Origin: an uncultured Rhizobiaceae bacterium
Lineage (GTDB): Bacteria; Pseudomonadota; Alphaproteobacteria; Rhizobiales; Rhizobiaceae
Direction of reading: 5' to 3'
Assembly (NCBI GenBank): GCA_951813045.1
Contig: CATOTF010000001.1
Location: 287,956 to 351,955 of the forward strand
DNA length: 64,000 nucleotides
The notes under the pieces are model-generated. The model did no database searches, was not told where the DNA came from, and worked only from the letters and a program-made list of their open reading frames with translations. Positions 3,158 through 33,842 of the stretch are shown piece by piece (within the stretch, counting starts at the first letter, position 1; the number at the start of each line of letters is the position of its first letter). Made by a program: the position numbers and the translations under genes.

Positions 3158-3159
3158 AC

Positions 3160-5879: not shown

Positions 5880-5881
5880 AA

Positions 5882-7948
5882 TTATTCGCCCTCTCCGATA
5901 GTGATGATCAAATGACGATGGGGTGTCACGGTCGCGCTATCGCCGGGATATACAGGCGTAGTGGTGTCAAGCTGTTCAATGATTGCCGGTCCATTGATTG
6001 TTTGGCCCGATATCAGTTCCGCGCGCGAATAGACCGCAGTTTCGACGGCCTCATCATCATTGAAAAACACAGATCGATGTTCTCTTGGCTTCCCATCCAG
6101 TACAGATGCATCATCCGCTACCGGATCACTCTCCTTAAACAGGCGAGCACTTGCTGAAAGGCGGACATTGACGATTTCCACCCCATCATCCGGGCTTGCA
6201 TAGCCATAAGCGGTTTCATGGGAGTCGCAAAACAGGATATGTAGTTCATTTGCGCTTCGAATATCAGTCGTACCGAGCGAGGGCGCGCTCGCAATAGGAA
6301 CAGCAAGTTCAAAATTTTGACCAACATATCGTGCATCCACAACAAGCTGTAACATACGCACATCTGCCGGCGCTTTCTCCTGTTTAAACCAGATCGCTGC
6401 ACGCTTGTTGAGATAGGCGAGAGCATCGCGAAGAATTTTAATTCCAGCGTCATTGAGAGCGAACCGCCGACTGACGACAAAATCTTCTTTCAAATCAGAA
6501 ACCAAAAGACCTTGTGCACAAACAATGCCGGGTGCGGCGGGCACGACCATCTCTCGCATCCCAAGGCTTATGGCGACATCGCGTGCATGTAGAGGCCCTG
6601 CACCGCCAAACGGCATCAATACAAATTCCCGAGGATCGTGCCCCCGCTCCACTGAAATCGTGCGGATCGTGCGAACCATATTGGCTACCATCACGCCCAA
6701 CGCGCCACGGGCCGTTTTCTCAACGGAAAACCCAAGCTCGTCGGCAATCGGTTGATAGGCGGCACGCGAAAGGTCCGCATCCAATCCCATATCGCCATCC
6801 AACAGGCCACGGGTAGACAGGCGTCCAAGCAACAGATTGGCATCTGTTACGGTTGGACGTTCCCCACCCTGACCATAACAGGCAGGCCCAGGCGTTGCAC
6901 CAGCGCTTACCGGTCCCATTTTTAAAAGCCCGTCGCGGTCGAACCAGGCAATCGACCCGCCGCCAGCGCCAACAGTTTCAACATCAACGCTGGGAAGTCT
7001 GATTGGGAAACCGGCCACATCCCGGTCGAATGCGACGTCTACTTCAAAATTCCGGATAAGTGCGACATCAGCACTGGTCCCGCCGATATCCAGAGTTATA
7101 ATATTATGGCGGTCGGCCTGCCTGGCAACATGGGCCGCGCCAACCGCACCAGCTGCCGGGCCTGAAAGCGCAGTACGTACTGGTAGCTCACGCGAGCGCT
7201 GAGGCGACATCAATCCACCGCTTGATTGATTGATCCCTAAAGTCGCACTGGCTGCTTGCCTGCTAACCCCGTCTTCCAGCGTTTGCAAATATTTGCTCAT
7301 AATAGGTTGCAAATATGCGTTCAACACTGTTGTCGACAGGCGCTCATATTCGCGAAACTCCGACTGAACCTCGCTGGATAAAGACAAAGCAATGTGAGGT
7401 GCTTTCTCTCGCATAATCTCTGCGACCAATTGTTCGTGAGCCGGATTGCGAAATGCAAACAAAAACCCAATCGCACAGGCCGTCGCTCCAGTTTTGATCA
7501 CTTCATCAATTGCTTTTTCAATCGCTTCACGTGCTGGCGCAGTGACGACGTCACCCTGCGCATCCATCCGCTCTTCCAGCTCGATGCGGTTTTCTCGATC
7601 AACCAGTGGAACCGGGTGATCGCGTTGCAAATCATACATATGAGGTCTGGTCTGACGGCCAATTTCAAGCAGATCACGAAACCCTTTGGTCGTGATCAAA
7701 GCAACCGTATCACCCGAGCGTTGGATCAGCGCATTCGTACCTACCGTCGTACCGTGGGACAGGCGTGTAATATCATCCAGACTGATGTCATGTTGTTTGC
7801 AGATATCGCTTAAGCCGGTCAGGATGGCTTGCGCCGGGTTGGACGGAGTAGATGATGTTTTTCCCACATGGACGGCGCCGGATTCATCATTCGCCGCGTA
7901 AAAATCGGTAAACGTTCCACCAACATCAACACCAATGGTCCAGCCCAT
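5882..7948 (-). CDS. Hydantoinase A/oxoprolinase family protein
   Basis: 688-aa ORF with N-terminal IGVDVGGTFTDF and later LDIGGTSADV ATPase motifs of the HyuA family. It is spaced 2 nt from the B subunit. Confidence 0.9.
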   Translation of the reverse strand: MGWTIGVDVGGTFTDFYAANDESGAVHVGKTSSTPSNPAQAILTGLSDICKQHDISLDDITRLSHGTTVGTNALIQRSGDTVALITTKGFRDLLEIGRQTRPHMYDLQRDHPVPLVDRENRIELEERMDAQGDVVTAPAREAIEKAIDEVIKTGATACAIGFLFAFRNPAHEQLVAEIMREKAPHIALSLSSEVQSEFREYERLSTTVLNAYLQPIMSKYLQTLEDGVSRQAASATLGINQSSGGLMSPQRSRELPVRTALSGPAAGAVGAAHVARQADRHNIITLDIGGTSADVALIRNFEVDVAFDRDVAGFPIRLPSVDVETVGAGGGSIAWFDRDGLLKMGPVSAGATPGPACYGQGGERPTVTDANLLLGRLSTRGLLDGDMGLDADLSRAAYQPIADELGFSVEKTARGALGVMVANMVRTIRTISVERGHDPREFVLMPFGGAGPLHARDVAISLGMREMVVPAAPGIVCAQGLLVSDLKEDFVVSRRFALNDAGIKILRDALAYLNKRAAIWFKQEKAPADVRMLQLVVDARYVGQNFELAVPIASAPSLGTTDIRSANELHILFCDSHETAYGYASPDDGVEIVNVRLSASARLFKESDPVADDASVLDGKPREHRSVFFNDDEAVETAVYSRAELISGQTINGPAIIEQLDTTTPVYPGDSATVTPHRHLIITIGEGE

Positions 7949-8198
7949 AAATGTGCCCTTCCGGCAATAAAATTTATCTTTGGCGGTGGATCGCCGTAAA
8001 ATACGTAGTGTACTACCAATTATTTATGAGTCAATTCATTCACACGGATTATCGTGTAAGTTTATCGCCAACGGGATAAGATGATTAGTATCCGGGCGCG
8101 GTAATAATATAAGAATGAATTGAGGCCAATAAGCCTGTGGATCCTCTTGCCGTGCGCTAGGTTTCCCCCGTAAATATTTTAATGTTACACTGAGCCCG

Positions 8199-8690
8199 AT
8201 GAACGACAAAACGCCCAATACACCTAGAGATTTCTCCGATCTTTATGATCGACCTGGATATCTAATCCGGCGTCTTCACCAAATTCATGTGGCGATGTTT
8301 TTAGACGAATGTGCCGAATTTAACCTGACCCCGGTACAATTCGCAGTCCTGACGGTACTGGCGAAAACAGGAACGCTTGATCAGGTGTCTATTGCAAAAA
8401 AGATAGGCGCGGACCGCAATACGGTTGCCGATGTTTTGCGGCGATTGGAGCGACGGGGCCTGATTGAGCGCCCGCCTAGCACAACTGACAAACGCACAAA
8501 ACTTGCAAGAATTACAGCAAATGGCAGTTCATTTGTTGAGGCGGTACAACCCAAAATGATCGAAGCTCAAAAACGTCTGACCGCTCCCATCGACCGGGAG
8601 GAGTACGATACGCTGAACCGGATCCTGCAAAAGCTGCTGCAGGGCACCAAAGAATCCAGCCGCGCACCATTGAGCTATGATTTTGAATAA
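8199..8690 (+). CDS. MarR-family transcriptional regulator
   Basis: 163-aa ORF with a winged HTH (LTPVQFAVLTVLAKTGTLDQVSIAKKIGADRNTVADVLRRLERRGLIER). It is divergent from the hydantoinase operon. Confidence 0.85.
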   Translation: MNDKTPNTPRDFSDLYDRPGYLIRRLHQIHVAMFLDECAEFNLTPVQFAVLTVLAKTGTLDQVSIAKKIGADRNTVADVLRRLERRGLIERPPSTTDKRTKLARITANGSSFVEAVQPKMIEAQKRLTAPIDREEYDTLNRILQKLLQGTKESSRAPLSYDFE

Positions 8691-9003
8691 GGGGTCGGTT
8701 TCTCAATCGGTTCATGAAACCGAAGTGAAATTTGATCTTACTGGCGTGGGGTTTGCGATGGCAGAAGGGACTTGGCCCAAAGAGATATTCGGGCTCCGCC
8801 TCGCTATCCAACTAGCTTCAACCTCGCCACCCCTTGACACCGTTATCTTCGACGTTGCGAAAAGCTGCTGCCCCCAGTTTCGATGCGGCCTTTCAAGCCG
8901 TCAGCGATAGATGCGATCCGTATACCGCAAACGAATGCGTCGATTTCTTCAAGGTTCCACCGCATGAGATCAAGAAGCTCCGAAACGCTCTTGAGTCCCA
9001 AAA

Positions 9004-9399
9004 ATGCCCAGAACTGAGTTAATGGGAACTGTAAATGTTTGGGCCGCTTTAATCGGTATTTTGATGTTTAGCATCGGCTCAAGCGATGCGATAGCTGATG
9101 AGCTTTTTCGCTGTAAACCGCTTTATCCGGTGTTTTGCCATAATATTCATGTGGGTTGCGCCGGGCGTACCGCGGTTCCCGCTCGCGCGTTCTCGGTCTC
9201 TCGACAGGGGGGCAAAGCTTCCGTGACATTTGATGATGGTAGCAGATGGTGGGCAGATGTTGAGGAAGCAAATGGTGATACAATTCTGATGCGCATCGGA
9301 TCACAAAACTGGATCCGAATTGAGGATAACGGTCGGTTCAGCTACAGGGTCTATAGTGACGTAAACGCTTTGATGGCCTTGGGCCAATGCACCAATTAG
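9004..9399 (+). CDS. Hypothetical small secreted protein (signal peptide, several Cys)
   Basis: 131-aa ORF with a hydrophobic N-terminus (VNVWAALIGILMFSIGSSDAIA). I recognise no family. It lies directly upstream of eboA. Confidence 0.4.
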   Translation: MPRTELMGTVNVWAALIGILMFSIGSSDAIADELFRCKPLYPVFCHNIHVGCAGRTAVPARAFSVSRQGGKASVTFDDGSRWWADVEEANGDTILMRIGSQNWIRIEDNGRFSYRVYSDVNALMALGQCTN

Positions 9400-9481
9400 A
9401 GATTTCGGTGCGGACGGTTGACAGCATGCTTGGATGACCTGTCTACTTATTCCTATCCATACCACGTTGCTACGAGATATA

Positions 9482-10411
9482 ATGACGGTGAATGCATCCC
9501 AGTTAATTGAGAAGTGGATATCGCGACAATTACCTGATGCTGCCATGCGATGGTTCCAGCAGCAGCTGGAATCCATTAATGACGATCTACCTTCGCGCAG
9601 TTTTGATATCGCTTTCGGCATGATACCACGCAAGCTCGGTAAGGCCGATTTGCGCCTTGAGGATCAGGATTTTGCCGACGCTGCCGGTCTTGTGGCGGGC
9701 TGGGACCCTTCGCGCTGGAGTGTCGACGTCGCTGCACGCATTCTGTTGCTCATTAAAGTATCAACGGTGACCAACGTGGCGTTTGCCACGCGGTTTAAGG
9801 AAATACATCAAACAGCCGACGTCAGCGAACTGCTGGCCCTATATTATGGTCTGCCGCTCTATCACGATCCGGAAGCATTGGTGGAACAGGCGGCCCTTGG
9901 CTTGCGTACCAATATTCGCGCCGAGTTTGAGGCAATTGCCCATAACAACCCGTTTCCAGCGGCGCATTTTGAGCAAAACCCCTGGAACAACATGGTGCTG
10001 AAAGCCCTGTTCATCGGTGCGATGCTCGAACCGGTCCAGGGCCTTGACGGGCGGGCAAACCCGGAATTGGCGCGTATTCTAAGCGATTATGCCCATGAAC
10101 GCTGGGCCGCAGACAGGGCGGTGTCGCCGGAATTATGGCGCTGTATCGGGCCATTTGCGGAAGGCGATTTGCTGGATGATTTTGAGCGGGTGATCGAAAG
10201 TGGAAATGGCACGGAAAAGAAAGCGGCAGCACTTGCCCTGAAAACGGCCCCTGAATCAAAACGTAAAGATACACTTATGGCTCAATTATCGATGTTTAAC
10301 GACGATATTGAAAATGGTCAGCTAACGTGGTCTTCGATTGCCGACGAAATGTTTGAAAACGCCCTTGCGGTTACCCAAAAACTGAATACCGAAGTGGAAT
10401 TGACCCGATGA
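9482..10411 (+). CDS. eboA: EboA-like protein (assigned mainly by synteny)
   Basis: ORF 9434..10411 with the likely start at ATG 9482 (MTVNASQL). Its stop overlaps the TatD/eboB start (ATGA at 10408). It is co-located with the eboB, C, D, E and F families. Confidence 0.55.
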   Translation: MTVNASQLIEKWISRQLPDAAMRWFQQQLESINDDLPSRSFDIAFGMIPRKLGKADLRLEDQDFADAAGLVAGWDPSRWSVDVAARILLLIKVSTVTNVAFATRFKEIHQTADVSELLALYYGLPLYHDPEALVEQAALGLRTNIRAEFEAIAHNNPFPAAHFEQNPWNNMVLKALFIGAMLEPVQGLDGRANPELARILSDYAHERWAADRAVSPELWRCIGPFAEGDLLDDFERVIESGNGTEKKAAALALKTAPESKRKDTLMAQLSMFNDDIENGQLTWSSIADEMFENALAVTQKLNTEVELTR

Positions 10412-11334
10412 TGCTCATCGATTCTCACGCGCATATGATTTCGCGCACAACAGATGATTATGAAGCTATGGCCGCCGCCGGCGTAGTCGCGGTTATTGAA
10501 CCGGCGTTCTGGATCGGCCAGCCACGTACACAAGTGGGCACCTATATTGATTATCTTTCTGCCATCGTCGGGTTCGAGCGCTTTCGTGCGGGGCAGTTCG
10601 GCATCCGCCATTATTGCACCATCGGGTTGAACTCCAAGGAAGCAAACAATGAGGAACTGGCGGAAGGGGTGATGGAAATCCTGCCAAGGTTTGCGTTGAA
10701 AGAAGGCGTCGTTGCGATTGGCGAGATCGGTTACGATGACCAAACCGAACTGGAAGATAAATATTTCCGCCTTCAAATCGAGCTGGCCAAGGAACTTGAA
10801 CTGCCGGTGATGATACACACGCCCCATCGGGACAAAAAACGGGGCACAACCCGCTCGATGGATGTTTGCGAAGAACACGGTATTGATCCGTCCATGGTGA
10901 TTGTTGACCACAATAATGAAGAGACAGTGCAGGAAGTTCTGGATCGGGGGTATTGGGCGGCATTTTCGATCTACCCCAGTACAAAAATGGGGTCGGCGCG
11001 TATGGTGGAACTGCTCAAGACCTATGGGCCGGAACGCATCATTGTGGATTCAGCCTGCGATTGGGGAATTTCCGAACCACTGGGTGTCGCGAAAACCGCA
11101 CTGCTGGCGGCCCAAGAAGGGATTGATAAAGAAGCTATTCGCCTGATCTGCTATCAAAATGCCCTCGATGCTTATGGTCAAAGCGGGCAGATGAAGGAAG
11201 AAGATTGGCTCAACCCCGACCCGATTGACCAACGCACCGTTTATGAAGGTAATTCGATTTTGCGTGGTCAAAGGGAGCCTGTCGTTGAAGACCCGAAGGA
11301 TAAAAAGAACCTGTCAAACCTGATCATCGAATGA
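10408..11334 (+). CDS. eboB: TatD-family metal-dependent hydrolase, EboB
   Basis: 308-aa ORF with TatD motifs DSHAH, GEIGYD, HTPH and DSACDWG. Confidence 0.85.
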   Translation: MMLIDSHAHMISRTTDDYEAMAAAGVVAVIEPAFWIGQPRTQVGTYIDYLSAIVGFERFRAGQFGIRHYCTIGLNSKEANNEELAEGVMEILPRFALKEGVVAIGEIGYDDQTELEDKYFRLQIELAKELELPVMIHTPHRDKKRGTTRSMDVCEEHGIDPSMVIVDHNNEETVQEVLDRGYWAAFSIYPSTKMGSARMVELLKTYGPERIIVDSACDWGISEPLGVAKTALLAAQEGIDKEAIRLICYQNALDAYGQSGQMKEEDWLNPDPIDQRTVYEGNSILRGQREPVVEDPKDKKNLSNLIIE

Positions 11335-11356
11335 CCGCGAAACGAAAGTCGGTTCC

Positions 11357-11998
11357 TTGAGCGCTTCGGTCAAATTCGGCCTGATATTGCTGTGCGTGGC
11401 TTTATTCGTCGCCGCGCCTTTTTTCTTTTTCGGTGATCAAATCGAGGAATTATTTGTTGGCGAAGGCGCCCTTCAACGGTTGCGCGGTTATGGTGGCTTC
11501 GCCTGGGTGGTGGCCATCGGTTTGTTGATTTCTGACCTTGCTTTGCCAGTTCCCACCACGTCGGTCATGGCGGCGCTTGGCATGATTTACGGCCCGCTGT
11601 TGGGCGGAATAATCGCCGCACTGGGATCGGTGGTCTCCGGATTGGTGGGGTATATTTTATGCCGAATTGTTGGTCGACCGGTTGCCGTCTATCTCAATGG
11701 CACCGCGGGACTGGCAAAGGGTGAAGCGCTTTTTGGCCGCGCAGGTGGGTGGGTCGTGGCCCTCTCGCGCTGGTTGCCCATTATTTCGGAAGTCGTGGCG
11801 TGCGCTGCCGGGCTCTCGAAAATGCGGTTTGCCGTATTTTTTGCCGCTTTGGTCTGCGGTTCAATTCCACTTGGATTTGCCTACGCAAGCCTAGGGTATC
11901 TTGGTGAAGATAGCCCGGTTCTGACCCTTCTGGTCACCGCGATCATGCCCTTTATCTTATGGCTTTTGGTTCGCCCGCTACTCCAACGGCTTAAATAA
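11357..11998 (+). CDS. TVP38/TMEM64 (DedA-related) family membrane protein
   Basis: 213-aa multi-TM ORF with an apparent TTG start. The core LPVPTTSVMAALGMIYGPLLGG...GYILCRIVGRP is typical of the SNARE-associated/TVP38 family. Confidence 0.65.
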   Translation: MSASVKFGLILLCVALFVAAPFFFFGDQIEELFVGEGALQRLRGYGGFAWVVAIGLLISDLALPVPTTSVMAALGMIYGPLLGGIIAALGSVVSGLVGYILCRIVGRPVAVYLNGTAGLAKGEALFGRAGGWVVALSRWLPIISEVVACAAGLSKMRFAVFFAALVCGSIPLGFAYASLGYLGEDSPVLTLLVTAIMPFILWLLVRPLLQRLK

Positions 11999-12116
11999 CC
12001 AATCGAGCTGTCGGCAAACGTTATTGTGAAATTAACCAAATTGGCTTGCCAAGTTTCCTGTTTGCGGCAAGACTTGTCGCAGGTTTGTTGCTCGCGGATG
12101 GGAGGCCGTTTAACAG

Positions 12117-12818
12117 ATGCCGCATGCGGGAACGGTAATTCGTGAATCAATTTCAGTTCAGCTTTATAATGATCTACTGACCGGTATTCAGGTTGGCGAT
12201 TATCCGCCGTTGAGCCCCTTGCCAACCGAGGCATCGCTTGCACATGATTACGGTGTTTCCCGCTCAGTAGTCCGTTCTGCCCTTTCCGTTCTCAAAGAAG
12301 ATGGAATCGTTGTTTCACGCCAGGGTTCAGGCACAATTGTGGCACCGGGTAAAAAGGTTCCGCAGAACAACCGGGCGCTTGAGATCGACCCGGCGGAGTT
12401 GAGGGACTGTTACAAATGCCGGGAATCCATGGAGCCGGATATTGCGGCCTATGCAGCGGCCCATAGAACCGGCAAGCACCTTCGTTATCTCGAACTTCAA
12501 TTGAAGATCATCGCGGATGAACTTGCCAGCGGTATTACCCACACGGGCAATGATGCGGACTTTCGTGTTCGACTGGCGGAAATGTCTGAAAATAGGTTTT
12601 TCGAAACGATTATCAATTCACTTCGACCACATATTTTGATCGGTATGAACTTTGCAAAGTCCCTGTCTCCCATGGACCGCAAGATTCATCAACACGAGTC
12701 ACTTCTGGAGCACCGGGCGATTGCCCAAGCGGTGATTGATCAAGATTGTGAGGGGGCGCGTCGGGCTATGAGTGAACACCTAACGCGCGGTCAACGCCGG
12801 ATATTTGTTGATCAGTAA
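12117..12818 (+). CDS. GntR/FadR-family transcriptional regulator
   Basis: 233-aa ORF with an N-terminal wHTH (LPTEASLAHDYGVSRSVVRSALSVLKEDGIVVSRQGSGTIV) and an all-helical FCD-like C-terminus. Confidence 0.85.
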   Translation: MPHAGTVIRESISVQLYNDLLTGIQVGDYPPLSPLPTEASLAHDYGVSRSVVRSALSVLKEDGIVVSRQGSGTIVAPGKKVPQNNRALEIDPAELRDCYKCRESMEPDIAAYAAAHRTGKHLRYLELQLKIIADELASGITHTGNDADFRVRLAEMSENRFFETIINSLRPHILIGMNFAKSLSPMDRKIHQHESLLEHRAIAQAVIDQDCEGARRAMSEHLTRGQRRIFVDQ

Positions 12819-12933
12819 TGGAGACCTTTAACAAGTTTCCATTCCCGCCGGACGTTTTTGGAACTCACGGTGAACAATAGGAATATGCCACTATCCAAAT
12901 GCTTGATATCGCCCAGTTTCAGGCGATTTTCAA

Positions 12934-12953
12934 ATTTGTTTTAAAAAACAAAT
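12934..12953. promoter_or_regulatory. Near-perfect palindrome ATTTGTTTT-AA-AAAACAAAT, candidate GntR-type operator
   Basis: Read directly from the sequence. It has 9-bp arms and a 2-nt spacer and contains the GT...AC core typical of GntR-family operators. It lies 70 nt upstream of the PQQ-dehydrogenase start and downstream of the GntR gene. Confidence 0.3.
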
Positions 12954-13025
12954 AGGAGAGTCATAAGGCCTGCGTTAGCCTTTCGTGGTATAGCTATTTC
13001 TACAACTTTTGGGAGGAATTACCGA

Positions 13026-14336
13026 ATGAGTATATCAAAACCCTTACTTGGGCTCGCGCTGACGACAGGTATCGCGGCTTCTGGAATTACGGCTGCAAAC
13101 GCAGAAATGAATATCAAGCTGGAACCGTATGTAACAGCTGTGAATGCACCGCTTGCGATGGTTCAACCGGCTGGTGATGATAGAAAATTTGTCATCGAAC
13201 AGCACGGTCGCATTAAAATTATCGACAAAGATGGCAAACTGTTACCAACGCCGTTTCTTGATATCCGCAACAAGATTGTCCCTCTGTTTCACGATTTCGA
13301 CGAACGCGGTCTTCTTGGCCTGACTTTCCATCCGGACTTTGCAAACAACGGCAAATTTTATGTGGCTTATTCAACTCAGTTAAACGTTCAGGGTGATCTT
13401 GGAAAAATGTTCTGGTGGGATCACAACAACACCGTTGCAGAATATACGGTTTCAGCCGACGATCCAAATGTCGCCAATATCAGTTCCGGACGTATTATCA
13501 CCGAAATGGACTGGCCACAGTTTAACCATAACGGCCACTGGATCGACTTTGGTAAAGACGGCATGTTGTACATCTCCTCAGGCGATGGCGGTTATGCCAA
13601 CGACTGGGGTATTGGTCACAATGTGACAGAGGGTAATGGACAAGATATGTCGGTTCTCCTGGGCAAAATTCTGCGGATTGATGTCAATAAATCAGAAGGT
13701 GGCAAAAACTACGGAATTCCTGCTGACAACCCATTTGTCGGCAATTCAGATGCTCGTGGCGAAATCTTTGCCTACGGCCTGCGCAACCCCTGGCGCTGTT
13801 CTTTTGATATGAAGGGCGCCAACGAGTTGTTTTGTGCTGATGTGCAGCAAAACAGTTTTGAGGAAGTCGACATTATCGCTAAAGGCGACAATCTTGGCTG
13901 GCGCAAAACCGAAGGTGGCCGGTGCTTTGATTACCAAAAGCCTGATAATCATCCAGCAACCTGCGACAAAACCGGTATCGTTGATCCCATCATAACTTAT
14001 AAAAACTGCTCGGCTCAGCCGAATGGTTGTGCAGGTATTTCAATTACCGGTGGGTATGTTTATCGCGGCGCACACGCTGCCTGGGATGGCAAGTATATCT
14101 TCGGTGATTGGAGCAAGAGCTTCGGCGCCATGGACGGTCAGATATTCTTTGGTAGCAAAGGCGCCGATGGCGATTGGGAAATGGAAGTGGCGAAGGTCAC
14201 CAACATGGACGGTAATATTCCCTACATTCTGGCGTTTGCCCAGGATTCAGCCGGTGAAGTCTATGCTTTGACGTCTATAACAACGGGACCAAATGGTACG
14301 TTGGACACGATCTATAAGGTTGTACCCGCCAACTAG
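13026..14336 (+). CDS. PQQ-dependent sugar (glucose/sorbosone) dehydrogenase, periplasmic
   Basis: 436-aa ORF with a signal peptide (LALTTGIAASGITAANA). Beta-propeller motifs GLLGLTFHPDF, HNGHWIDFGKDGMLYISSGDGG and YGLRNPWRCSFD are present. Confidence 0.8.
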   Translation: MSISKPLLGLALTTGIAASGITAANAEMNIKLEPYVTAVNAPLAMVQPAGDDRKFVIEQHGRIKIIDKDGKLLPTPFLDIRNKIVPLFHDFDERGLLGLTFHPDFANNGKFYVAYSTQLNVQGDLGKMFWWDHNNTVAEYTVSADDPNVANISSGRIITEMDWPQFNHNGHWIDFGKDGMLYISSGDGGYANDWGIGHNVTEGNGQDMSVLLGKILRIDVNKSEGGKNYGIPADNPFVGNSDARGEIFAYGLRNPWRCSFDMKGANELFCADVQQNSFEEVDIIAKGDNLGWRKTEGGRCFDYQKPDNHPATCDKTGIVDPIITYKNCSAQPNGCAGISITGGYVYRGAHAAWDGKYIFGDWSKSFGAMDGQIFFGSKGADGDWEMEVAKVTNMDGNIPYILAFAQDSAGEVYALTSITTGPNGTLDTIYKVVPAN

Positions 14337-14496
14337 AACCCAACAGGAATGGTGCCGCTTGCCACGCTTGCGGCACCATTTTCGATTACCGAAAAATTTG
14401 GAAGAACCTGCAGGTTGTGCCAGATTAGGTCATCAAATGGTCATGACCTTGTTCCGAAATCACGATGTAATTTTATCGAATGTGAGCACAGAACTA

Positions 14497-15210
14497 ATGA
14501 AGTTTATCAATGCCAGCGCCCTGATTTCCATGTCGCTACTGGGTGTTCTTTATCCGGTTCAGTCATCAGCGCAGGACACTTATCTTGGAGAAAAGCTATT
14601 CAAGAAATGCAAGGCATGTCACGCGGTTGGCGAAGGGGCGAAACATCGCATTGGCCCGCAACTCAACGGTTTGGGCGGGCGTAAAGCCGGCACAGTTGAA
14701 GGTTTCGACTATTCTGACGGCATGAAGGCAGCTGGTGAAAACGGGTTGGTCTGGGACAAGAAGACCCTGGACAAGTTTCTGATCGAACCTGATGCGATGA
14801 TCGAAGACACTGCAATGGCTTTCTCCGGTCTGGAGAAAGCTGAGAACCGGACAGATTTGATCGCTTATCTGCTGACCCTTGCCCCCCCGGCCGCCAAAAA
14901 TAGTGGTGAAGTCGCTGCAAAAAAGGCCGTTGTTTCCGCGCCACCGGAATTTACGGAAGCTTATTTATCGGACCCGGCACATGTGGCGACGGGTAAAGAA
15001 CTATGGTTTGGGCAATGCACCCATTGCCACGGGTTCAAAGCTTATCCGGGAAAAGCCCCCAAATTGAAGCCGGAGAACTATACGCCCGACTTCGTCTATA
15101 AACGGGTCGCCAAAGGTTTCAAGAAAATGCCGGCATGGGAGGACGTATTCAGTCAAGACGAGATGAAAGCAATTGTTGCTTATGTGCAAAGCAATAGTTT
15201 TTCTCCGTAG
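14497..15210 (+). CDS. Dihaem c-type cytochrome, periplasmic
   Basis: The track ORF 14293..15210 is over-extended. The plausible start is ATG 14497 (MKFINASALISMSLLGVLYPVQSSA, a signal peptide). It has two CxxCH motifs (CKACH, CTHCH). Confidence 0.8.
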   Translation: MKFINASALISMSLLGVLYPVQSSAQDTYLGEKLFKKCKACHAVGEGAKHRIGPQLNGLGGRKAGTVEGFDYSDGMKAAGENGLVWDKKTLDKFLIEPDAMIEDTAMAFSGLEKAENRTDLIAYLLTLAPPAAKNSGEVAAKKAVVSAPPEFTEAYLSDPAHVATGKELWFGQCTHCHGFKAYPGKAPKLKPENYTPDFVYKRVAKGFKKMPAWEDVFSQDEMKAIVAYVQSNSFSP

Positions 15211-15222
15211 GAGGATTACAGT

Positions 15223-15582
15223 ATGAGAATTTTAAATGCTGTTCTTTGCCTCATGATGATCCTGTTCATTGTTGTGCAGTTCAATGATCCTGATGGCCCG
15301 TTCTGGGCGGTGATATACGTGGTGCCTGCCTTGTGGGCAGGACTGATCGCCATTAAATCAGCGCATATTGTGGGCCGAATTGCATTTTCGATTTTGAGTG
15401 CGTGTGTCGTCGGTGGCTTGGTAATGACCGTCTTTTACTGGCCCAGAACACCGGGCTTTTGGAAACAGGAAGTCTGGTGGGAAACGGAAACGGCCCGTGA
15501 GGGAATGGGCATTATGATTGCGACAATGGTATTGTTGGTAGCGATGTTTACCGTTTGGCGTGCCCGTCAACAATCGATTTGA
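15223..15582 (+). CDS. Small 4-TM membrane protein (possibly TMEM220-like)
   Basis: 119-aa hydrophobic ORF with an NDPDGPFW motif. An RBS-like GGAGGA lies 8 nt upstream. The family assignment is from memory only. Confidence 0.45.
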   Translation: MRILNAVLCLMMILFIVVQFNDPDGPFWAVIYVVPALWAGLIAIKSAHIVGRIAFSILSACVVGGLVMTVFYWPRTPGFWKQEVWWETETAREGMGIMIATMVLLVAMFTVWRARQQSI

Positions 15583-15638
15583 ATAACCTCGACAGGGAAG
15601 ATCGTTGCGAAGGTACGAGTGATAGAGTTGGAACGACA

Positions 15639-16835
15639 ATGATGAGTAAGAACATTGATACCCCGGTGTGGTCTGAAACACTGTTGCAACGCTTTGAAGT
15701 GCCGTTCGAGTTTCCGGTATGTTTTACGGAAAATCTCTTCGCCCTCCAAAACCGGACGCTGGTGGATGTTCTTTGTCGCTTGGAAAGTTCCAAACGCCAC
15801 AAGGTTCTGTTTCTTGTTGACGATGGAGTCGCCGCTGCCCGTTCAGACCTGATTACGCAAATAAAGAACTATTGCGAACATCACGGTGAGAGCATCGAAT
15901 TAATTGCTGAACCTATTCCTGTACCCGGCGGTGAGAAGATTAAGGCCGAGCTGCAATATGTCGAGCAGATGCAAAAAGCGCTCTACGATTATCACGTTGA
16001 TCGTCATTCCTACGTGATCGCCATTGGCGGCGGTGCTGTGCTGGATGCTGTTGGACTTGTCGCTGCTACCGCCCATCGTGGGGTACGCCATATTCGAATC
16101 CCGACTACGGTACTTTCGCAAAACGATTCCGGCGTTGGTGTAAAGAACGGGGCAAATCTCTTTGGTACGAAAAATTATGTCGGCACATTTGCGCCACCTT
16201 TTGCCGTATTGAACGACCTTGATTTCGTTATGGGGCTTGGTGATCGCGACAAGATTGCCGGCATGGCGGAAGCCGTAAAAGTCGCGCTGATCCGCGATGG
16301 TGAATTTTTCAAATGGCTGGAAAAGCACGCCGACGACCTTGCGACGTTCAAAAAGCCACCAATGGCGTACATGATCCAAAGATGCGCCGAACTGCACATG
16401 AAGCAAATCGGTCAGGGGGGCGACCCTTTTGAGACCGGCAGCGCACGCCCTCTTGATTACGGCCATTGGTCCGCTCACAAGCTGGAGAGCCTCACCCGTT
16501 ACCATGTCCGTCACGGCGAAGCGGTGGCCATCGGCATTGCACTTGATGCCCGCTATTCGGTGCTTAGTGGCCTACTGGAACCGGGAGAAGAAGACCGTAT
16601 CTGTTTTCTGCTGGAACACCTGGGTTTCAAACTCTGGCATTCCGCCCTTGAGATGCGGGCGGTTGACGGTGAACTGGAACTGATGAAAGGTTTACGGGAC
16701 TTCCGCGAACACCTTGGCGGGGAACTGACGATTACCCTATTGTCAGGCATTGGCGTGGGTATTGAAGTGCACGAAATTGACGATGGTAACGTGATGGAAT
16801 CCATCAATTGGCTGAAAAGCCGACAGGAGTATTGA
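15639..16835 (+). CDS. eboD: 3-dehydroquinate-synthase-like sugar phosphate cyclase, EboD
   Basis: The track ORF starts at 15555, overlapping the previous gene. The likely start is ATG 15639 (MMSKNIDTP). DHQS-family motifs GGGAVLDAVG and RIPTTVLSQNDSGVGVKNG are present. Confidence 0.85.
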   Translation: MMSKNIDTPVWSETLLQRFEVPFEFPVCFTENLFALQNRTLVDVLCRLESSKRHKVLFLVDDGVAAARSDLITQIKNYCEHHGESIELIAEPIPVPGGEKIKAELQYVEQMQKALYDYHVDRHSYVIAIGGGAVLDAVGLVAATAHRGVRHIRIPTTVLSQNDSGVGVKNGANLFGTKNYVGTFAPPFAVLNDLDFVMGLGDRDKIAGMAEAVKVALIRDGEFFKWLEKHADDLATFKKPPMAYMIQRCAELHMKQIGQGGDPFETGSARPLDYGHWSAHKLESLTRYHVRHGEAVAIGIALDARYSVLSGLLEPGEEDRICFLLEHLGFKLWHSALEMRAVDGELELMKGLRDFREHLGGELTITLLSGIGVGIEVHEIDDGNVMESINWLKSRQEY

Positions 16836-18043
16836 TGGAACTTTCAGGTGGCCGCAATCTGGGGCAATTAACATATTGCACCAATATCCATGCCGGTGAG
16901 ACCTGGGCCGATATCATGGAAGGTATGCGTCGCCATTTACCGGATATAAAACGCGATGTCAGTCCCGATGCACCCCTTGGTGTTGGGCTTCGCCTGTCGG
17001 CCGCCGCCGCAGAAACCCTTCGCGATGGGGCGATATTCGCTGACTTTGAGAAATTTCTCAAAGACGGGGATTATTACATCTTCACGCTGAACGGGTTTCC
17101 CTACGGCAATTTTCACGGTTCACGTGTCAAGGAAGGGGCGTATAAACCCGATTGGACCCAGCAATCGCGGTTGGATTATACAAATACAATGGCAGATCAT
17201 CTCGCAAGATGGTTACCCGTTGGAATGGAGGGGTCAGTCAGCACCGTGCCCGGTACGTTCAAGCCATGGGCTCAAGGGGACGATGGTGATGAAGTTGTTG
17301 CTAAAATCACCGAAAATCTAATCCGCCATGTAGCCCATTTGGTGAAACTGCGGGAAGAAACGGGAAAACTGATCAACCTGGCGCTGGAACCGGAACCGTT
17401 TTGCCTGATCGAAACGATTGAGGAAACGGTACACCTTTTTGAGGACCATCTTTACAGTGCCGCCGCCGCCGCAAGATTGTCCGAACTCACCGGTCTTCCG
17501 GAAACTGCGGCGTCTGCTGCGCTGCGTGAACACCTTGGTGTCTGTTACGATGTATGCCATGCGGCGGTGGAGTTTGAAGACCCGCAATCCAGTCTGGACG
17601 CCTTGCGGAACGCCGGCATCAAAATTTCAAAACTGCAACTCAGTTCTGCCGTGCGTATTCCAAGTGTGGACGGGAATACTGCAAATTTGCTCAAGCCATT
17701 GGATGAGCCGGTTTATATGCATCAGGTGATCGAGAGCCGAAATGGCGACCTCACCCGCCATGCGGATGTGCCAATTGCGATTAAAACTATTGATCAGGCC
17801 CATGGCGCGGAGTGGCGCATCCATTTCCATGTCCCCATTTTTTTGGAAGAGATGGAACATCTGGCCACCACTCAGCAATTTTTGAAAGACGTGTTGGCCA
17901 TTCACGCCAAAAACCCGGTTACCAGGCAATTGGAAGTTGAAACTTATACCTGGGACGTTTTGCCTGAAAACCAGCGAGCGGATGGTCTCAGTGCGGCGAT
18001 TGCAAGAGAGCTAAACTGGGTGCGAAGCGAACTGGCTGTATGA
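16835..18043 (+). CDS. eboE: Xylose-isomerase-like TIM-barrel protein, EboE
   Basis: ATG 16835 overlaps the eboD stop (TGATG), with AGGAG 6 nt upstream. The product starts MELSGGRNLGQLTYCTNIHAGETW. The protein is about 400 aa and sits between eboD and eboC. Confidence 0.75.
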   Translation: MELSGGRNLGQLTYCTNIHAGETWADIMEGMRRHLPDIKRDVSPDAPLGVGLRLSAAAAETLRDGAIFADFEKFLKDGDYYIFTLNGFPYGNFHGSRVKEGAYKPDWTQQSRLDYTNTMADHLARWLPVGMEGSVSTVPGTFKPWAQGDDGDEVVAKITENLIRHVAHLVKLREETGKLINLALEPEPFCLIETIEETVHLFEDHLYSAAAAARLSELTGLPETAASAALREHLGVCYDVCHAAVEFEDPQSSLDALRNAGIKISKLQLSSAVRIPSVDGNTANLLKPLDEPVYMHQVIESRNGDLTRHADVPIAIKTIDQAHGAEWRIHFHVPIFLEEMEHLATTQQFLKDVLAIHAKNPVTRQLEVETYTWDVLPENQRADGLSAAIARELNWVRSELAV

Positions 18044-18921
18044 ACGGAATGACATTCAACACTGCGTTGAAACTCGGTCGTGTCTCAAACCTGCCGACGG
18101 TCTGGACAAATTGTCTGGCAGGTATCGCGCTTACGGGCGGCGTGATTGTCGATATTCGAACCCCATTTATCATCTTCGCCTTGTCGCTGTTTTACATCGG
18201 CGGCATGTTTCTAAACGACGCCTGTGACGCGGAAATTGATGCAATCGAACGCCCGGAACGACCCATCCCCGCAGGACTGGTCACCGCGAAAACGGTATTT
18301 AACTGGGCGGCGGGCATGATGGGCGCTTCCGTGTTGCTGCTGTTTCTGATCGGCATATTGCCCGAAAATGGAACCGGTATCTGGCCCGCCATTTGCGGCG
18401 TTGTACTCGCAGGGTTGATCGTTCTCTATAACCGCCACCATAAAAATAATCCGCTCAGCCCGCTTATCATGGGCCTTTGCCGGGTGCTGGTTTATCTGAC
18501 GGCGGGCGTGTGTTTTGCAGCCGCACTTGGCGTTCCCTTGTTGATCGGGGCGTTACTGCTGGTGAGTTATCTCATCGGCCTTACTTACGTTGCCAAACAG
18601 GAAAATTTCGGCAACGTGGAAAACCTGTGGCCACTGGCGTTTATCGCCGCCCCGGTTCTCTATGGGTTCTACCTCGTATCGCACGAAACGTCGGTCTTGC
18701 CCTTCTGGCTCATATTTATTGTTTGGGTGGGCATAGCCCTCAACTTCATTCGCCGTCGGGGGCCGGGGGATATTCCCCGTGCCGTTGTCAGTCTCATTGC
18801 GGGCATATCATTACTGGATGCGATTATGATCGCGAGCACCGGGAACATAATGTGGGCGGTTTTAGCAGTTGGATTATTTGCACTCACCCTGTTTCTTCAA
18901 AAGTTCATTTCGGGAACGTAA
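18040..18921 (+). CDS. eboC: UbiA-family prenyltransferase, EboC
   Basis: 293-aa polytopic ORF with an Asp-rich motif NDACDAEIDAIERPERPIP typical of UbiA prenyltransferases. It has an ATGA overlap with eboE. Confidence 0.85.
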   Translation: MNGMTFNTALKLGRVSNLPTVWTNCLAGIALTGGVIVDIRTPFIIFALSLFYIGGMFLNDACDAEIDAIERPERPIPAGLVTAKTVFNWAAGMMGASVLLLFLIGILPENGTGIWPAICGVVLAGLIVLYNRHHKNNPLSPLIMGLCRVLVYLTAGVCFAAALGVPLLIGALLLVSYLIGLTYVAKQENFGNVENLWPLAFIAAPVLYGFYLVSHETSVLPFWLIFIVWVGIALNFIRRRGPGDIPRAVVSLIAGISLLDAIMIASTGNIMWAVLAVGLFALTLFLQKFISGT

Positions 18922-18946
18922 AGTCAACACGGTTTACGAGCCTTGC

Positions 18947-20341
18947 TCAGTTTGCTTTTCGCCCGAACACATGATCCAGCACCAATTGCTTGAAGTCCAC
19001 AGCGGCCACCGGTCCTTCCCCCAACAGGTCTTCGCGTGAGCTTATCACCATTGGCCCGTCATCAGGATCATCCGTCAACCTCCCGTGGGAACCTTTGACG
19101 AGTTTGGTGTCATTCAGCGAGATTACATCCATCAGGTTTCGAAACCCGAGTTTACGTTGCGCAACTTTCAGCCCGGCCTTCAGCTTTGGAAATCTAAGGG
19201 CCGGATCGAAGAATAATTCAACTGGGTCATAACCCGGCTTGCGATGAATATCGACGGTAGTCGCATAATCCGGCGCTTTTTCGTCGTCGAGCCAATAATA
19301 ATAACTGAACCACCGGTCAGCACTGGAAATTGCAACCAGTTCACCGGAGCGGTCGTGGGCAAGTCCAGCGGCGGCTTTGCCTTCGTAATCCAACACCGTT
19401 TCAACACCATCAAGTTGTTCCACGAGTTTTTTTACTTCCAACAACCGATCCGGGGATTTGACGTAGATATGTGCCAGCTGATGGTCAGCAAGCGCAAAGG
19501 CATCTGACGCGCCCGCATCAAAAACGTCACGTCCGAGCTCTTCGCGCGTAGCAATCAGACCCGCTTCACGCAACGCGCGGTTAATATGAATTGCGTCGGT
19601 CACTTCTGTAATGCCGTATTCTGATACCACGATCACATCGCGACCTTCCTTGTCGGCCGCTTCAATTAATTCTCCGCAAAGGTCATCGATCTCCTTGAGG
19701 TCAGCGATAAGTCGAGGATGGGAAAGATCGGGGCCAAGCCTTTGGAGGTTGTAATCAAGGTGCGGAAGATACGTCATTGCAAGTGTCGGTTTGCGGGTGT
19801 CGATGACATGTTGAGTGGCTTTGGCAATCCAGGAGCTGGATTCAATGTCAGCAACGGGGCCCCAGAATTTGAACAGGGGAAACTTCCCAAATTTTGCATC
19901 AAGCTCATCGCGCATCCCTTGGGGATAAGCGTAATGGTCGGGAATCTTCAATCCATTGGCGGGGTACATCGGGCGCGGGGTCGCACTCCAGTCGGCGGTC
20001 GCATACATATTGTACCACCAGAACATCTTGGCGCAGGTGAAATCCGGGTCGCGTTTCTTACCCGCGTCCCAGATTTTTTCGCCATGCACGAGTTGGTTAG
20101 GTTGGCGCCAGAGCAGAACTTCCGACAGATCGCGGAAATACCAGCCGTTCGCGACAGCACCGTGATTTGACGGCAAAGTACCCGTAACCAATGTGGATTG
20201 AACCGTACACGTCACTGCGGGAACGACTGTGGACAATGGCCGGGTACCACCGCGCTCGGCAAGTTTTTTCAAATGGGGCGTGTGCTCGCCAATCAACGAT
20301 GGGGAAAGCCCAACGACAAGGATAACAAGAGTAGGTTGCAT
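18947..20341 (-). CDS. eboF: Nucleotide pyrophosphatase/phosphodiesterase (alkaline-phosphatase superfamily), EboF
   Basis: The track ORF extends to 20461. The likely start is ATG 20341 (MQPTLVILVVGLSP..., the typical beta-strand start of the AP superfamily). It is convergent with eboC. Confidence 0.75.
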   Translation of the reverse strand: MQPTLVILVVGLSPSLIGEHTPHLKKLAERGGTRPLSTVVPAVTCTVQSTLVTGTLPSNHGAVANGWYFRDLSEVLLWRQPNQLVHGEKIWDAGKKRDPDFTCAKMFWWYNMYATADWSATPRPMYPANGLKIPDHYAYPQGMRDELDAKFGKFPLFKFWGPVADIESSSWIAKATQHVIDTRKPTLAMTYLPHLDYNLQRLGPDLSHPRLIADLKEIDDLCGELIEAADKEGRDVIVVSEYGITEVTDAIHINRALREAGLIATREELGRDVFDAGASDAFALADHQLAHIYVKSPDRLLEVKKLVEQLDGVETVLDYEGKAAAGLAHDRSGELVAISSADRWFSYYYWLDDEKAPDYATTVDIHRKPGYDPVELFFDPALRFPKLKAGLKVAQRKLGFRNLMDVISLNDTKLVKGSHGRLTDDPDDGPMVISSREDLLGEGPVAAVDFKQLVLDHVFGRKAN

Positions 20342-20929
20342 AAAAATTGGCTGCCAAATTATCACCCGTCGGGGCTGGTCAACGGAAATGATACAGGGGG
20401 AACGCGCATTGGCAAATGTGTTTTTGAAATCCCCGGGATTCAAATAGATAATTAACATCAATAGTCAAATGGTCACTCACTTATGATAGTGTAAAGTCCA
20501 GCTAAGTGAATGGCGACTTCTAAAATATTGGCCCAACAAAGTCTCGTAAGTCCCAAGGTCGGTAGTGGGCAAGCTGCGGTAAAAACTCGGGTAGAGATGT
20601 TATTCTCACTGGCCTGAGCCTGACATTCCTGCTGTTCGTTTCATGCTGTGCCCGGGCCTATTTTACCGACCTGTCAGGAGCGATTATCGCCCGGGGTGCT
20701 GGCGGTTCCCGGCAAGCTCAAAACCGCCAACACCCGGATTGTGGAATAGTATCGGAAAGCAGGATTGCTGATGAGGTTGGGTCGGTAGATTTGGGTCCAG
20801 GTAATCGCACGCCCTTGCCACTTACCTGGACCACCAAGACATCGCTGTTATCCACCGAAGAATAAATGTGTTGCTTAAAAATATCTATTAGTTATCATTG
20901 AAATGTCAACCAATAGAAATTGATATTTT

Positions 20930-21694
20930 ATGTACGACCCTTCTTCCCCATTGCTGCGCCCTGTTATTTCAGAAGACGGCATTCCCAACCCAGAGGCCAA
21001 GGTTCGTTTTGCCGAGGATCGATTGCTTGATGCGGTGATCTGGTGCGAACTTATGCCGAGTGAGGTGGTGACAGAAGCCGACGTCATGGGTCGTTTCGGA
21101 TTGACCAAGGCTGCGGCTCGTTCCGGCCTGTCGCGGCTTGGATATGACGGGTGGGCGATGCCACAACCACGGACCGGATGGCTGATCCTGCCAGTCAGTG
21201 GAGCATTGATCGGTCACGTTATAGGTGCACGGCGAATCGCGGAAGCAGCGCTGACTGAACTGGCTCTTGATGCTTCTGCGCGCGAAGAGCTTGAGCAAGT
21301 TGGGCGCGTACTCGCAGCCACTGATGGGCAAAATGATGCTGGCCTTGTTCGAACCATTAATCATTATCTCAACCGCATTGACGGAATAATGCTGGAAAAC
21401 AGCAATCCGTTTACAGCGCGCCACCTGCGCAAATTGTGGCACCACACGGCTCGGGTCACCCATTATTTTGAAGAGAGTGGCGCGCAACAAAGTTTTAGGC
21501 GCACGGATGGGTCGACGTTGATTCAGGCACTGTGCGCAGGTGACGGGAATGCAATCCGAGCTGCCCGCACGGCGCTGCTCGATGCCCAGGAAACATTCTT
21601 CATGCGCCAATTGCTGCGCGATGAAACACCACTGTCGCGACCAGGGCTGACCTCAAATCGTAAATCGACAACCCAGAACAGGAGAAACCTATGA
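20930..21694 (+). CDS. GntR-like transcriptional regulator (wHTH plus FCD-like domain)
   Basis: 254-aa ORF. The segment EADVMGRFGLTKAAARSGLSRLGYDGWA resembles a GntR wHTH. Its stop overlaps the start of the downstream SBP gene. Confidence 0.55.
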   Translation: MYDPSSPLLRPVISEDGIPNPEAKVRFAEDRLLDAVIWCELMPSEVVTEADVMGRFGLTKAAARSGLSRLGYDGWAMPQPRTGWLILPVSGALIGHVIGARRIAEAALTELALDASAREELEQVGRVLAATDGQNDAGLVRTINHYLNRIDGIMLENSNPFTARHLRKLWHHTARVTHYFEESGAQQSFRRTDGSTLIQALCAGDGNAIRAARTALLDAQETFFMRQLLRDETPLSRPGLTSNRKSTTQNRRNL

Positions 21695-23181: not shown

Positions 23182-23182
23182 C

Positions 23183-26557: not shown

Positions 26558-26560
26558 ACG

Positions 26561-30068: not shown

Positions 30069-30303
30069 TCCGGTTCGGGAGAGATCAATTTGTTCATCAG
30101 AAAAATAATGGAACCCGTCAAATCGGAACTGTTCACATCGTGGATGCGTGCAGGCGGGCTCCATCAACTTGATGCTCGGCCAGGCGGCGATGCTGTACAC
30201 AAGCGAAAGGAGAATCTGGAAGCCAGTTCGATGAACCCCCAAAATACACTTAACCAGTAACTGACTCTGGCCTCACAAAGTGAGGTTATTAATGGAGGAA
30301 AAA

Positions 30304-31866: not shown

Positions 31867-31940
31867 CAATGTAACTGTCAACAGGCGCTTCGGCGGCAAT
31901 TTACCGTCGCCGAAGCTTCCTCGTTGCATGTGGGGTGTCC

Positions 31941-33841: not shown

Positions 33842-33842
33842 C

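Follow-up and report, generated by a model that had tools for sequence, protein, structure and literature searches.

We examined a 64,000-nucleotide stretch of DNA from an uncultured Rhizobiaceae bacterium (contig CATOTF010000001.1, positions 287,956 to 351,955; here called the window) and found that the region at 9482-20341 is almost certainly an ebo gene cluster. It is an ordinary member of a widespread Pseudomonadota type of ebo cluster, and as an object it is therefore not novel. Lying among its ebo genes are genes for a secreted propeller of the glucose/sorbosone dehydrogenase (GSDH) family, a c-type cytochrome, and a TMEM220-family membrane protein, and these accompany ebo genes across three classes of Proteobacteria, in some lineages together with a DedA-type membrane protein. 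We consider it very probable that the accessory genes are functionally linked to the ebo pathway. We also favor, with less assurance, the reading that a Pseudomonadota-type ebo biosynthetic cluster is extended here by a conserved accessory set that would add a branch for export and periplasmic oxidation.

A complete ebo gene set in a permuted order

Open reading frame (ORF) listings together with hidden Markov model (HMM) scans placed all six ebo families at 9482-20341, where the core genes fit inside 10.9 kb in three blocks: eboA-eboB, eboD-eboE-eboC, and a convergent eboF. Every gene from that of a small cysteine-containing protein (9004..9399) through eboC is on the plus strand, and eboF alone is on the minus strand. 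As seen from coordinates and sequence, an ATGA overlap couples eboA to eboB, a TGATG overlap couples eboD to eboE, and a second ATGA couples eboE to eboC; a 25-bp gap separates eboC from the convergent eboF. The gap between eboB and eboD (11335-15638, 4304 bp) holds five genes, which encode a DedA/VTT protein, a GntR/FCD regulator, the GSDH protein, a diheme cytochrome c, and TMEM220. A contiguous, collinear ABCDEF order is not present; the genes run A-B-(five genes)-D-E-C, with F on the opposite strand. A first-pass annotation made from the sequence alone had proposed each of these features, from the six families and the start/stop couplings to the five intervening genes, the opposed eboF, and the non-canonical layout of a complete set, and all were upheld by the coordinates and HMM scans and by one-to-one homologs in Aureibacter tunicatorum.

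The product of eboA (9482..10411, plus strand) matched the NF035938 EboA_domain model at 160 bits (cut-off 50), and that of eboE (16835..18043, plus strand), a xylose-isomerase-like TIM barrel, matched NF035939 TIM_EboE at 456 bits (cut-off 250). Both scores bear out the earlier placement of these proteins in their families. Against the stricter NF035937 EboA_family model, EboA scored 245 bits, under the cut-off of 320. The eboA ORF opens at 9434, and its start is probably at 9482; the EboA ortholog in the closest relative found, locus L126, has 309 amino acids (aa) and matches PF28008 EboA. The start of eboE is the ATG at 16835, which yields a 402-aa product matching the NCBI/ENA record in full. 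The TatD-family metal-dependent hydrolase encoded by eboB (10408..11334, plus strand; PF01026, 64 bits, cut-off 27) is 73-91% identical to almost all cluster-linked proteobacterial orthologs. EboD (15639..16835, plus strand), a DHQS-like sugar-phosphate cyclase, scored 577 bits against NF004852 (PRK06203; cut-off 333) and 213 bits against the aroB model TIGR01357, under its cut-off of 305. The nearest EboD relatives, at most 80% identical, come from metagenome-assembled genomes (MAGs) of uncultured members of the Rhizobiaceae group and of Rhodospirillales. EboF (18947..20341, minus strand) is an alkaline-phosphatase-superfamily type-I phosphodiesterase (PF01663, 209 bits), and there was no EboF-specific model in the HMM libraries searched.

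The remaining core gene, eboC (18040..18921, plus strand), encodes a UbiA-type membrane prenyltransferase (PF01040) whose top NCBIfam match is NF035940 EboC. The window protein and annotated EboC share an invariant N-D-x2-D-x3-D motif plus other positions, and the gene-order survey showed eboC always after eboE in relatives. On these features we tentatively class the protein as a member of a proteobacterial EboC clade, the orthologs of which are labeled by NCBI just as "UbiA family prenyltransferase". All six Ebo proteins have one-to-one homologs in the annotated eboABCDEF operon of A. tunicatorum pAT1, with identities of 25% (A), 67% (B), 29% (C), 46% (D), 36% (E), and 45% (F).

Accessory genes accompany the ebo genes of Proteobacteria

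A scan of species-representative genomes seeded with EboD gave 80 loci, against which the window proteins were then run by tblastn. These loci represented Alpha-, Beta-, and Gammaproteobacteria, along with a small number from Planctomycetota in which eboD stood alone; 39 of them, with at least 6 kb on either side of eboD, formed the well-covered subset. Within that subset, TMEM220 was found in 31 loci, cytochrome c in 29, and a GSDH ortholog (64-84% identity) in 26, with DedA in 9 and isopentenyl-diphosphate (IPP) isomerase in 8. TMEM220 adjoins eboD in 62 of the 80 loci, and DedA orthologs are present in 12 of the 80 and in L126. The gene directly following GSDH encoded a homolog of the C-terminal heme domain of the window cytochrome in 75 of 78 cases; all-against-all clustering showed that this is usually a monoheme cytochrome orthologous to that domain.

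This linkage survives extensive rearrangement. Among 57 loci having at least five core genes we counted 32 gene orders, and the linkage persists across this variety. The sub-blocks A-B and GSDH-cytochrome are invariant across loci, as is D-E-C except in the Granulosicoccaceae, and the window has its split arrangement because its layout follows these sub-blocks. Tabulating the neighborhoods thus showed split and permuted orders to be the norm in Pseudomonadota, with the inserted genes recurring in most loci. Because permuted order is typical of this phylum, collinear ABCDEF order is a mark of the canonical subtype and not of the family, and the recurrence beside ebo genes supports the first-pass suggestion that the extra genes point to accessory functions.

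The association also holds when searched from the other side. A metagenome scan seeded with GSDH returned 45 contigs, and 14 of the 18 that were at least 7 kb long bear ebo genes; all four long contigs seeded with TMEM220 carry ebo clusters, one of them in a MAG of the Opitutaceae (Verrucomicrobiota). The identity of GSDH orthologs to the window protein correlates with that of eboB (Spearman 0.78) and of eboD (0.56), compared with 0.39-0.61 for the ebo genes among themselves. GSDH is therefore co-inherited with the ebo genes at least as tightly as the ebo genes are with each other. We found no discussion of this association in the papers that we read, and a combined literature search on the accessory families returned nothing.

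The Opitutaceae cluster (L132, GCA_051252415.1, 6854-16107) lacks EboA. Its order is a 650-aa multiheme cytochrome, two unknowns, TMEM220, an 88-aa protein that is possibly EboG, TatD, EboE, UbiA, DHQS, and the phosphodiesterase, after which comes a protein of 2007 aa in which a weak GSDH domain was detected. Since this cluster has both TMEM220 and a cytochrome, these accompany ebo genes outside the Proteobacteria too.

The cluster is conserved as one unit

In L126, whose GSDH is 87% identical to that of the window, the same 11 genes stand in the same order from EboA to EboF. The flanks differ, with a KAP NTPase gene and a gene resembling FMN-dependent dehydrogenases upstream and a phage terminase gene downstream in L126. 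DNA homology between the two is confined to 9491-12778 and 12933-20341 and ends at the cluster borders. Because the homology covers just this stretch, we define the conserved unit as eboA to eboF (9482-20341), which behaves as one unit in differing genomic contexts. The small cysteine-containing protein gene and a MarR gene lie outside the unit common to the window and L126.

The first-pass annotation described the cluster as enlarged by a 4.3-kb insert, and the five genes in 4304 bp are indeed there. They could conceivably have come in through an insertion that has no functional connection to ebo and that broke up an ancestral contiguous operon, since contiguous proteobacterial clusters exist (L012, L015, and L047, which lack the accessory genes, have F on the minus strand then A B D E C, and Azospirillum B510 has A B F D E C; none is a close relative) and the GntR gene was found in the closest relatives only. 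We nevertheless regard this origin as very improbable, and a recent or foreign insertion was rejected. Across three classes and 32 gene orders, most loci have these families beside ebo genes, and converse searches with GSDH, TMEM220, and the small cysteine-containing protein return ebo clusters. The earlier annotation had named a contiguous operon without the insert in close relatives as the sign of such an event, and the order in L126 is instead identical. Base composition is unremarkable (GC 0.497 in the eboB-eboD gap versus 0.523 in the ebo genes), and HMM scans showed no mobile-element genes inside the cluster. Conservation, the converse searches, and the L126 order together largely refute the idea.

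The propeller, cytochrome, and membrane proteins

The GSDH-family protein (13026..14336, plus strand; PF07995, 124 bits) belongs to a subgroup resembling the Hedgehog-interacting protein (HHIP) and has a signal-peptide-like N-terminus, in keeping with secretion. Its AlphaFold2 (AF2) model is a six-bladed beta-propeller (pLDDT 82, pTM 0.85), and Foldseek gave a TM score of 0.71 to vertebrate HHIP and of 0.60-0.70 to 3A9G, 1C9U, and 2G8S. A phmmer search of solved structures likewise ranked HHIP (E 1e-38) ahead of the pyrroloquinoline quinone (PQQ) enzymes YliI and soluble glucose dehydrogenase (sGDH; 1e-9 to 1e-16), and the score against NCBIfam TIGR03606 was 54 bits (cut-off 435). The clade is highly conserved (68-87% identity), with an invariant His of the active-site region (in FNHNGHW), an R-N-P motif, and the loop GDGG.ANDWGIGHNVT.GNGQD; the R-N-P position is H-D-P in HHIP. 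The C-terminal R-x-R-D-V of sGDH/YliI, with the Arg pair of the PQQ enzymes, is seemingly replaced by I-L-A-F, as in HHIP. With the PQQ aldose dehydrogenases (Acinetobacter calcoaceticus sGDH, 1C9U; Escherichia coli YliI/Asd, 2G8S; Pyrobaculum aerophilum 3A9G) it shares the secreted PF07995 propeller, and many periplasmic quinoprotein dehydrogenases have a c-type cytochrome partner, as the window GSDH appears to have. The GSDH protein presumably acts on a substrate other than a free aldose.

Among solved structures, vertebrate HHIP is a nearer match to the propeller than any bacterial protein. In the phmmer alignment, the HHIP segment GDGMITLD--DMEEMDG, which we take to be the Hedgehog-binding loop of HHIP, aligns with the invariant loop of the GSDH clade. 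Two families with animal members, the HHIP-like propeller and TMEM220, are parted in the window only by the cytochrome gene.

The cytochrome gene, cytC (14497..15210, plus strand), encodes a periplasmic diheme c-type cytochrome with a signal-peptide-like N-terminus and the heme motifs CKACH and CTHCH (PF00034, PF13442). Its start is most likely at 14497, giving 237 aa; the L126 ortholog is called at 236 aa. Weak NCBIfam matches were to PedF and MoxG, which are cytochrome partners of periplasmic quinoprotein dehydrogenases. Because a cytochrome is constantly present and is weakly similar to PedF/MoxG, it can be argued that the GSDH protein is a redox enzyme, and the cytochrome is likely its electron acceptor.

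TMEM220 (15223..15582, plus strand; PF15071, 49 bits) has four transmembrane/hydrophobic segments, and we know of no function for this family, animal homologs included. The DedA/VTT-domain membrane protein (11357..11998, plus strand; PF09335, 70.6 bits, cut-off 33.9) has about six hydrophobic segments. The DedA family includes polyprenyl-phosphate flippases, and the window protein gave weak NCBIfam UptA/DedA matches. It shares the VTT domain PF09335 with UptA, the undecaprenyl-phosphate transporter, and is likewise set in the context of a membrane-bound prenylated metabolite, but it scores far under the UptA equivalog cut-offs (27 bits versus 250). The protein is a candidate flippase or exporter.

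A small four-cysteine protein

The gene directly preceding eboA (9004..9399, plus strand) encodes a small, presumably secreted protein with a signal-peptide-like N-terminus and four invariant cysteines. The family carries the motif RCxPxLPVFCxNVHVGCAGR and is rare, with 32 protein clusters in 5.8 billion proteins. In all seven contexts in which we saw it (the window, L001, L023, L071, L073, L130, and L131), it is in or beside an ebo cluster. Both contigs seeded with this protein carry ebo clusters, with the gene between eboF and eboC in each. The first-pass annotation had flagged this gene for its position upstream of eboA, and its tie to ebo is borne out; the protein is a rare accessory of ebo clusters. 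Its AF2 model is a small all-beta barrel (pLDDT 87). A fold search of the PDB with this model found nothing significant (best E 0.018, TM at most 0.46), and the modeled fold gives only a hint of a likeness to lipocalins or fatty-acid-binding proteins.

A putative regulator and operator

The second gene of the eboB-eboD gap encodes a GntR/FCD (FadR-type) regulator (12117..12818, plus strand; PF00392, 58.7 bits; PF07729, 65.2 bits), orthologs of which were found only in L001, L002, and L126 besides the window. In front of the GSDH gene is the palindrome ATTTGTT-N6-AACAAAT (12934..12953), which has one exact match in the window. Among 129 loci, it was present only in the three with the GntR gene, at the same position, and in none of the other 126. 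The intergenic DNA between the GntR and GSDH genes is otherwise divergent in the window, L001, L002, and L126, and the palindrome is kept in all four; the homology between the window and L126 restarts at 12933, beside it. From this pattern we propose the palindrome as a putative GntR operator, through which the regulator, as repressor or activator, would control the genes from GSDH, cytC, and TMEM220 through eboDEC.

A promoter-like site (TTGCCA-16-TATCAT, 20415-20388) lies just upstream of eboF, as a consensus match only. Promoter-like sites numbered 20, versus 13.1 ± 3.7 in shuffled sequence (about 1.9 standard deviations above), and the count of terminator-like sites equaled that of shuffled sequence. 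An Rfam scan of 8000-21500 gave no match.

Neighboring genes and related clusters

NCBIfam scans of ten flanking ORFs gave catabolic enzymes, components of ABC peptide transporters, and a gamma-glutamyltransferase; PQQ and isoprenoid genes were absent from these ten. Upstream of the cluster, a catabolic-looking operon on the minus strand (723-7948) encodes two F420-type LLM-class luciferase-like oxidoreductases (TIGR03619 and TIGR03617, both above cut-off), which are unusual in an alphaproteobacterium-like genome, along with an acyl-CoA ligase and hydantoinase/caprolactamase-like A and B subunits. Downstream of eboF (20930-36160) come a 254-aa protein without a family match and then at least two Opp/Dpp/Nik-type ABC peptide transporter sets, a short-chain (SDR) dehydrogenase, and a gamma-glutamyltransferase; none of these genes is common to the L126 flanks.

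Isopentenyl-diphosphate isomerase-like genes occur in many related ebo clusters, and none is within the window cluster. NUDIX isomerase genes were found in L019, L021, L027, L030, L031, L041, L044, L059, L077, and L133-L135, and in Granulosicoccaceae-type loci they follow eboB; the gene in L126 that resembles FMN-dependent dehydrogenases (2636-3694, upstream of eboA) is possibly a type 2 isomerase. Such genes fit a need for prenyl donor supply. A 547-aa secreted protein without a Pfam match recurs in the ebo clusters of one group of uncultured Alphaproteobacteria (L009 16751-18394, L049, L060, and L065-L068). Some of these have a GSDH gene, and no GSDH ortholog was detected in L009, L049, and L066.

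In one clade, the GSDH-cytochrome-TMEM220 triad lies on one strand (L095 8147-10284, L099, L101 5586-7694, and L092 2969-5085). An SNF2-family helicase gene is just upstream of the triad in L095 and L092, the two whose neighbors were scanned, and in L092, a relative of the other three, an ebo block lies about 5 kb from the triad. EboE homologs were found on 48 plasmid records, 29 from Streptomyces and 5 from Ketogulonicigenium, with Mycetohabitans, Salipiger, Deinococcus, Azospirillum, Roseivivax, and Aureibacter among the other hosts. The Ketogulonicigenium ebo genes are flanked by two Gfo/Idh/MocA oxidoreductases, a sugar-phosphate isomerase, a GntR regulator, and a tricarboxylate (TTT) transporter, and also by a cytochrome c and dehydrogenase pair.

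Discussion

The cluster described here has the same six families as the canonical eboABCDEF operon of Bacteroidota, cyanobacteria, and eustigmatophyte plastids (Yurchenko et al. 2016, PMC5133447), at 25-67% identity to the Aureibacter proteins, and shares with it an EboA-type rather than EboG-type protein and the tight A-B coupling. It differs in that the canonical operon is collinear, whereas the window has A-B, then D-E-C with F convergent, and five or six extra genes, and in that its EboC and EboA fall under the NCBIfam equivalog or subfamily cut-offs. The EDB ("edible") cluster of Pseudomonas fluorescens NZI7 has six ebo homologs and three unknown genes, some with signal peptides (Burlinson et al. 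2013, as summarized in PMC12904256 and PMC6282210). These extras are known to us by description only; the description fits GSDH, cytochrome c, and TMEM220, and the window adds DedA, GntR, and the small cysteine-containing protein.

The first-pass annotation took the product of ebo clusters to be unidentified, which is out of date. According to a preprint of May 2026 (bioRxiv 10.64898/2026.05.21.724671), ebo genes are present in all thallusin producers of five phyla, including the alphaproteobacterium Tranquillimonas alkanivorans and Nostoc, and not in non-producers, and thallusin is lost on deletion of eboB, C, E, or F. L-aspartate enters the quinoline core, which is proposed to derive from a cyclitol, and the membrane enzyme EboC farnesylates 6,7,8-trihydroxyquinaldate ethyl ester in vitro and may also cyclize, leading to drimane-quinoline meroterpenoids of the saccharoquinoline/thallusin type. 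For the oxidation that turns saccharoquinoline into thallusin, the preprint states that no enzyme has been assigned. The preprint counted core ebo genes in about 4,400 of 124,295 genomes and described a gene order in Pseudomonadota that differs from that in Bacteroidota. The window shares the clustering of eboB, C, E, and F, plus eboA and eboD, and the non-Bacteroidota order. By analogy, the balance tips slightly toward a thallusin-type product for the window cluster. The main text of the preprint makes no mention of dehydrogenase, cytochrome, or DedA genes, and it restricts the distribution in Pseudomonadota to specialized lineages (Granulosicoccales), whereas we found the cluster in numerous alpha- and betaproteobacterial lineages. 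Culturable carriers of this cluster type are T. alkanivorans, Phaeobacter marinintestinus (GSDH 76% identical), Zeimonas arvi (L018), and Granulosicoccus. In Table S3 of the preprint, 91 genes are found only in thallusin-producing Maribacter strains; one of them, locus 788 (COG2010 and COG2133), is a fusion of cytochrome c and a propeller of the YliI-type glucose/arabinose dehydrogenase kind, far from the ebo genes. The authors do not discuss it, and we regard it as a weak lead toward a parallel to the proteobacterial GSDH/cytochrome pair.

In the branch that we propose, DedA and/or TMEM220 would move an amphiphilic product or intermediate to the periplasmic face of the membrane. There the secreted propeller would oxidize it, with the neighboring c-type cytochrome receiving the electrons; the small beta-barrel, also secreted, may serve to bind the hydrophobic product. 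That the GSDH protein and cytochrome oxidize the ebo product in the periplasm is, judged from the sequences, a tentative assignment. Equally tentative is the fuller suggestion of a branch dedicated to export and periplasmic oxidation, made up of the propeller, cytochrome, and TMEM220 and joined in some lineages by DedA and the small beta-barrel; this branch would carry out the oxidative tailoring that lacks an assigned enzyme. Such tailoring could be the oxidation of the trihydroxyquinoline ring that takes saccharoquinoline to ring-opened thallusin, or alternatively could yield a lineage-specific oxidized meroterpenoid.

Several observations weigh against this proposal. The GSDH protein is nearer to the non-enzymatic HHIP than to the PQQ dehydrogenases in both sequence and fold, leaving its cofactor uncertain, and what we take to be the PQQ-binding signature is only partly kept. 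DedA is present in only about one-quarter of the loci. The accessory set is not nearby in the Aureibacter, Azospirillum B510, and Ketogulonicigenium clusters or in L012, L015, and L047, and in L095, L099, and L101 the triad has no ebo gene within 3-8 kb. EboC scored 122 bits against NF035940, where the cut-off is 250. The product assignment itself would rest by analogy on the preprint and one confirmed Pseudomonadota producer, Tranquillimonas. Moreover, Bacteroidota with the canonical ABCDEF operon are confirmed thallusin producers (bioRxiv 10.64898/2026.05.21.724671), and the accessory genes are thus not universally essential, unless encoded elsewhere.

Some of these points would suit an independent periplasmic respiratory module, in which GSDH, cytochrome c, and TMEM220 oxidize sugars or aldoses, do not act on the ebo product, and are near the ebo genes perhaps through shared regulation or a shared pool of cyclitol or sugar substrates. 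Characterized PF07995 members have so far been aldose and sugar dehydrogenases, the triad stands without nearby ebo genes in L095, L099, and L101, confirmed thallusin producers of other phyla lack it nearby, and Ketogulonicigenium has other oxidoreductases and a separate cytochrome/dehydrogenase pair instead. We think this unlikely, however. The association is very strong in both search directions, with GSDH identity following that of the ebo genes as well as these follow each other; in the window, the GSDH gene shares both its strand and its putative regulated unit with eboDEC; and the GSDH clade is highly conserved and distinct from YliI/sGDH. Somewhat less likely still is a "metabolite traffic" role, drawn from the Nostoc scytonemin work and the Pseudomonas EDB phenotype, in which the cluster produces, instead of a thallusin-type signal, a prenylated carrier derived from a cyclitol and bound to the membrane, by which other metabolites reach the periplasm, with the secreted accessory proteins as clients or partners. 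The EDB cluster affects indole metabolites without an obvious product (PMC12904256), the window cluster includes genes for a DedA-type protein and for several periplasmic proteins, and EboC falls under the equivalog cut-off, so that the substrate or product of the proteobacterial EboC may differ. On the other side, the preprint reports thallusin from Nostoc and an alphaproteobacterium and its loss in eboB, C, E, and F mutants, and suggests that the scytonemin observations are perhaps indirect effects; beside the window cluster there are no client pathway genes, the flanks being catabolic and ABC-transport genes.

We therefore retain the accessory-branch reading as the preferred one. Ebo clusters are very widespread, and recent work connects them with thallusin, which acts on algae as a morphogen at picomolar levels. 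Our comparison adds that proteobacterial ebo genes are accompanied by one particular secreted propeller, a cytochrome c, TMEM220, and often DedA; the set most likely links the ebo pathway to export and periplasmic oxidation, and its members make up a short list of proteins that could perform the oxidation and export steps missing from the pathway. The set may also account for the three extra genes of the Pseudomonas EDB cluster, and the GntR regulator with its putative operator offers a handle on cluster regulation. If the export and periplasmic oxidation branch is real, it would give bacterial TMEM220-family proteins and HHIP-like propellers their first functional context.

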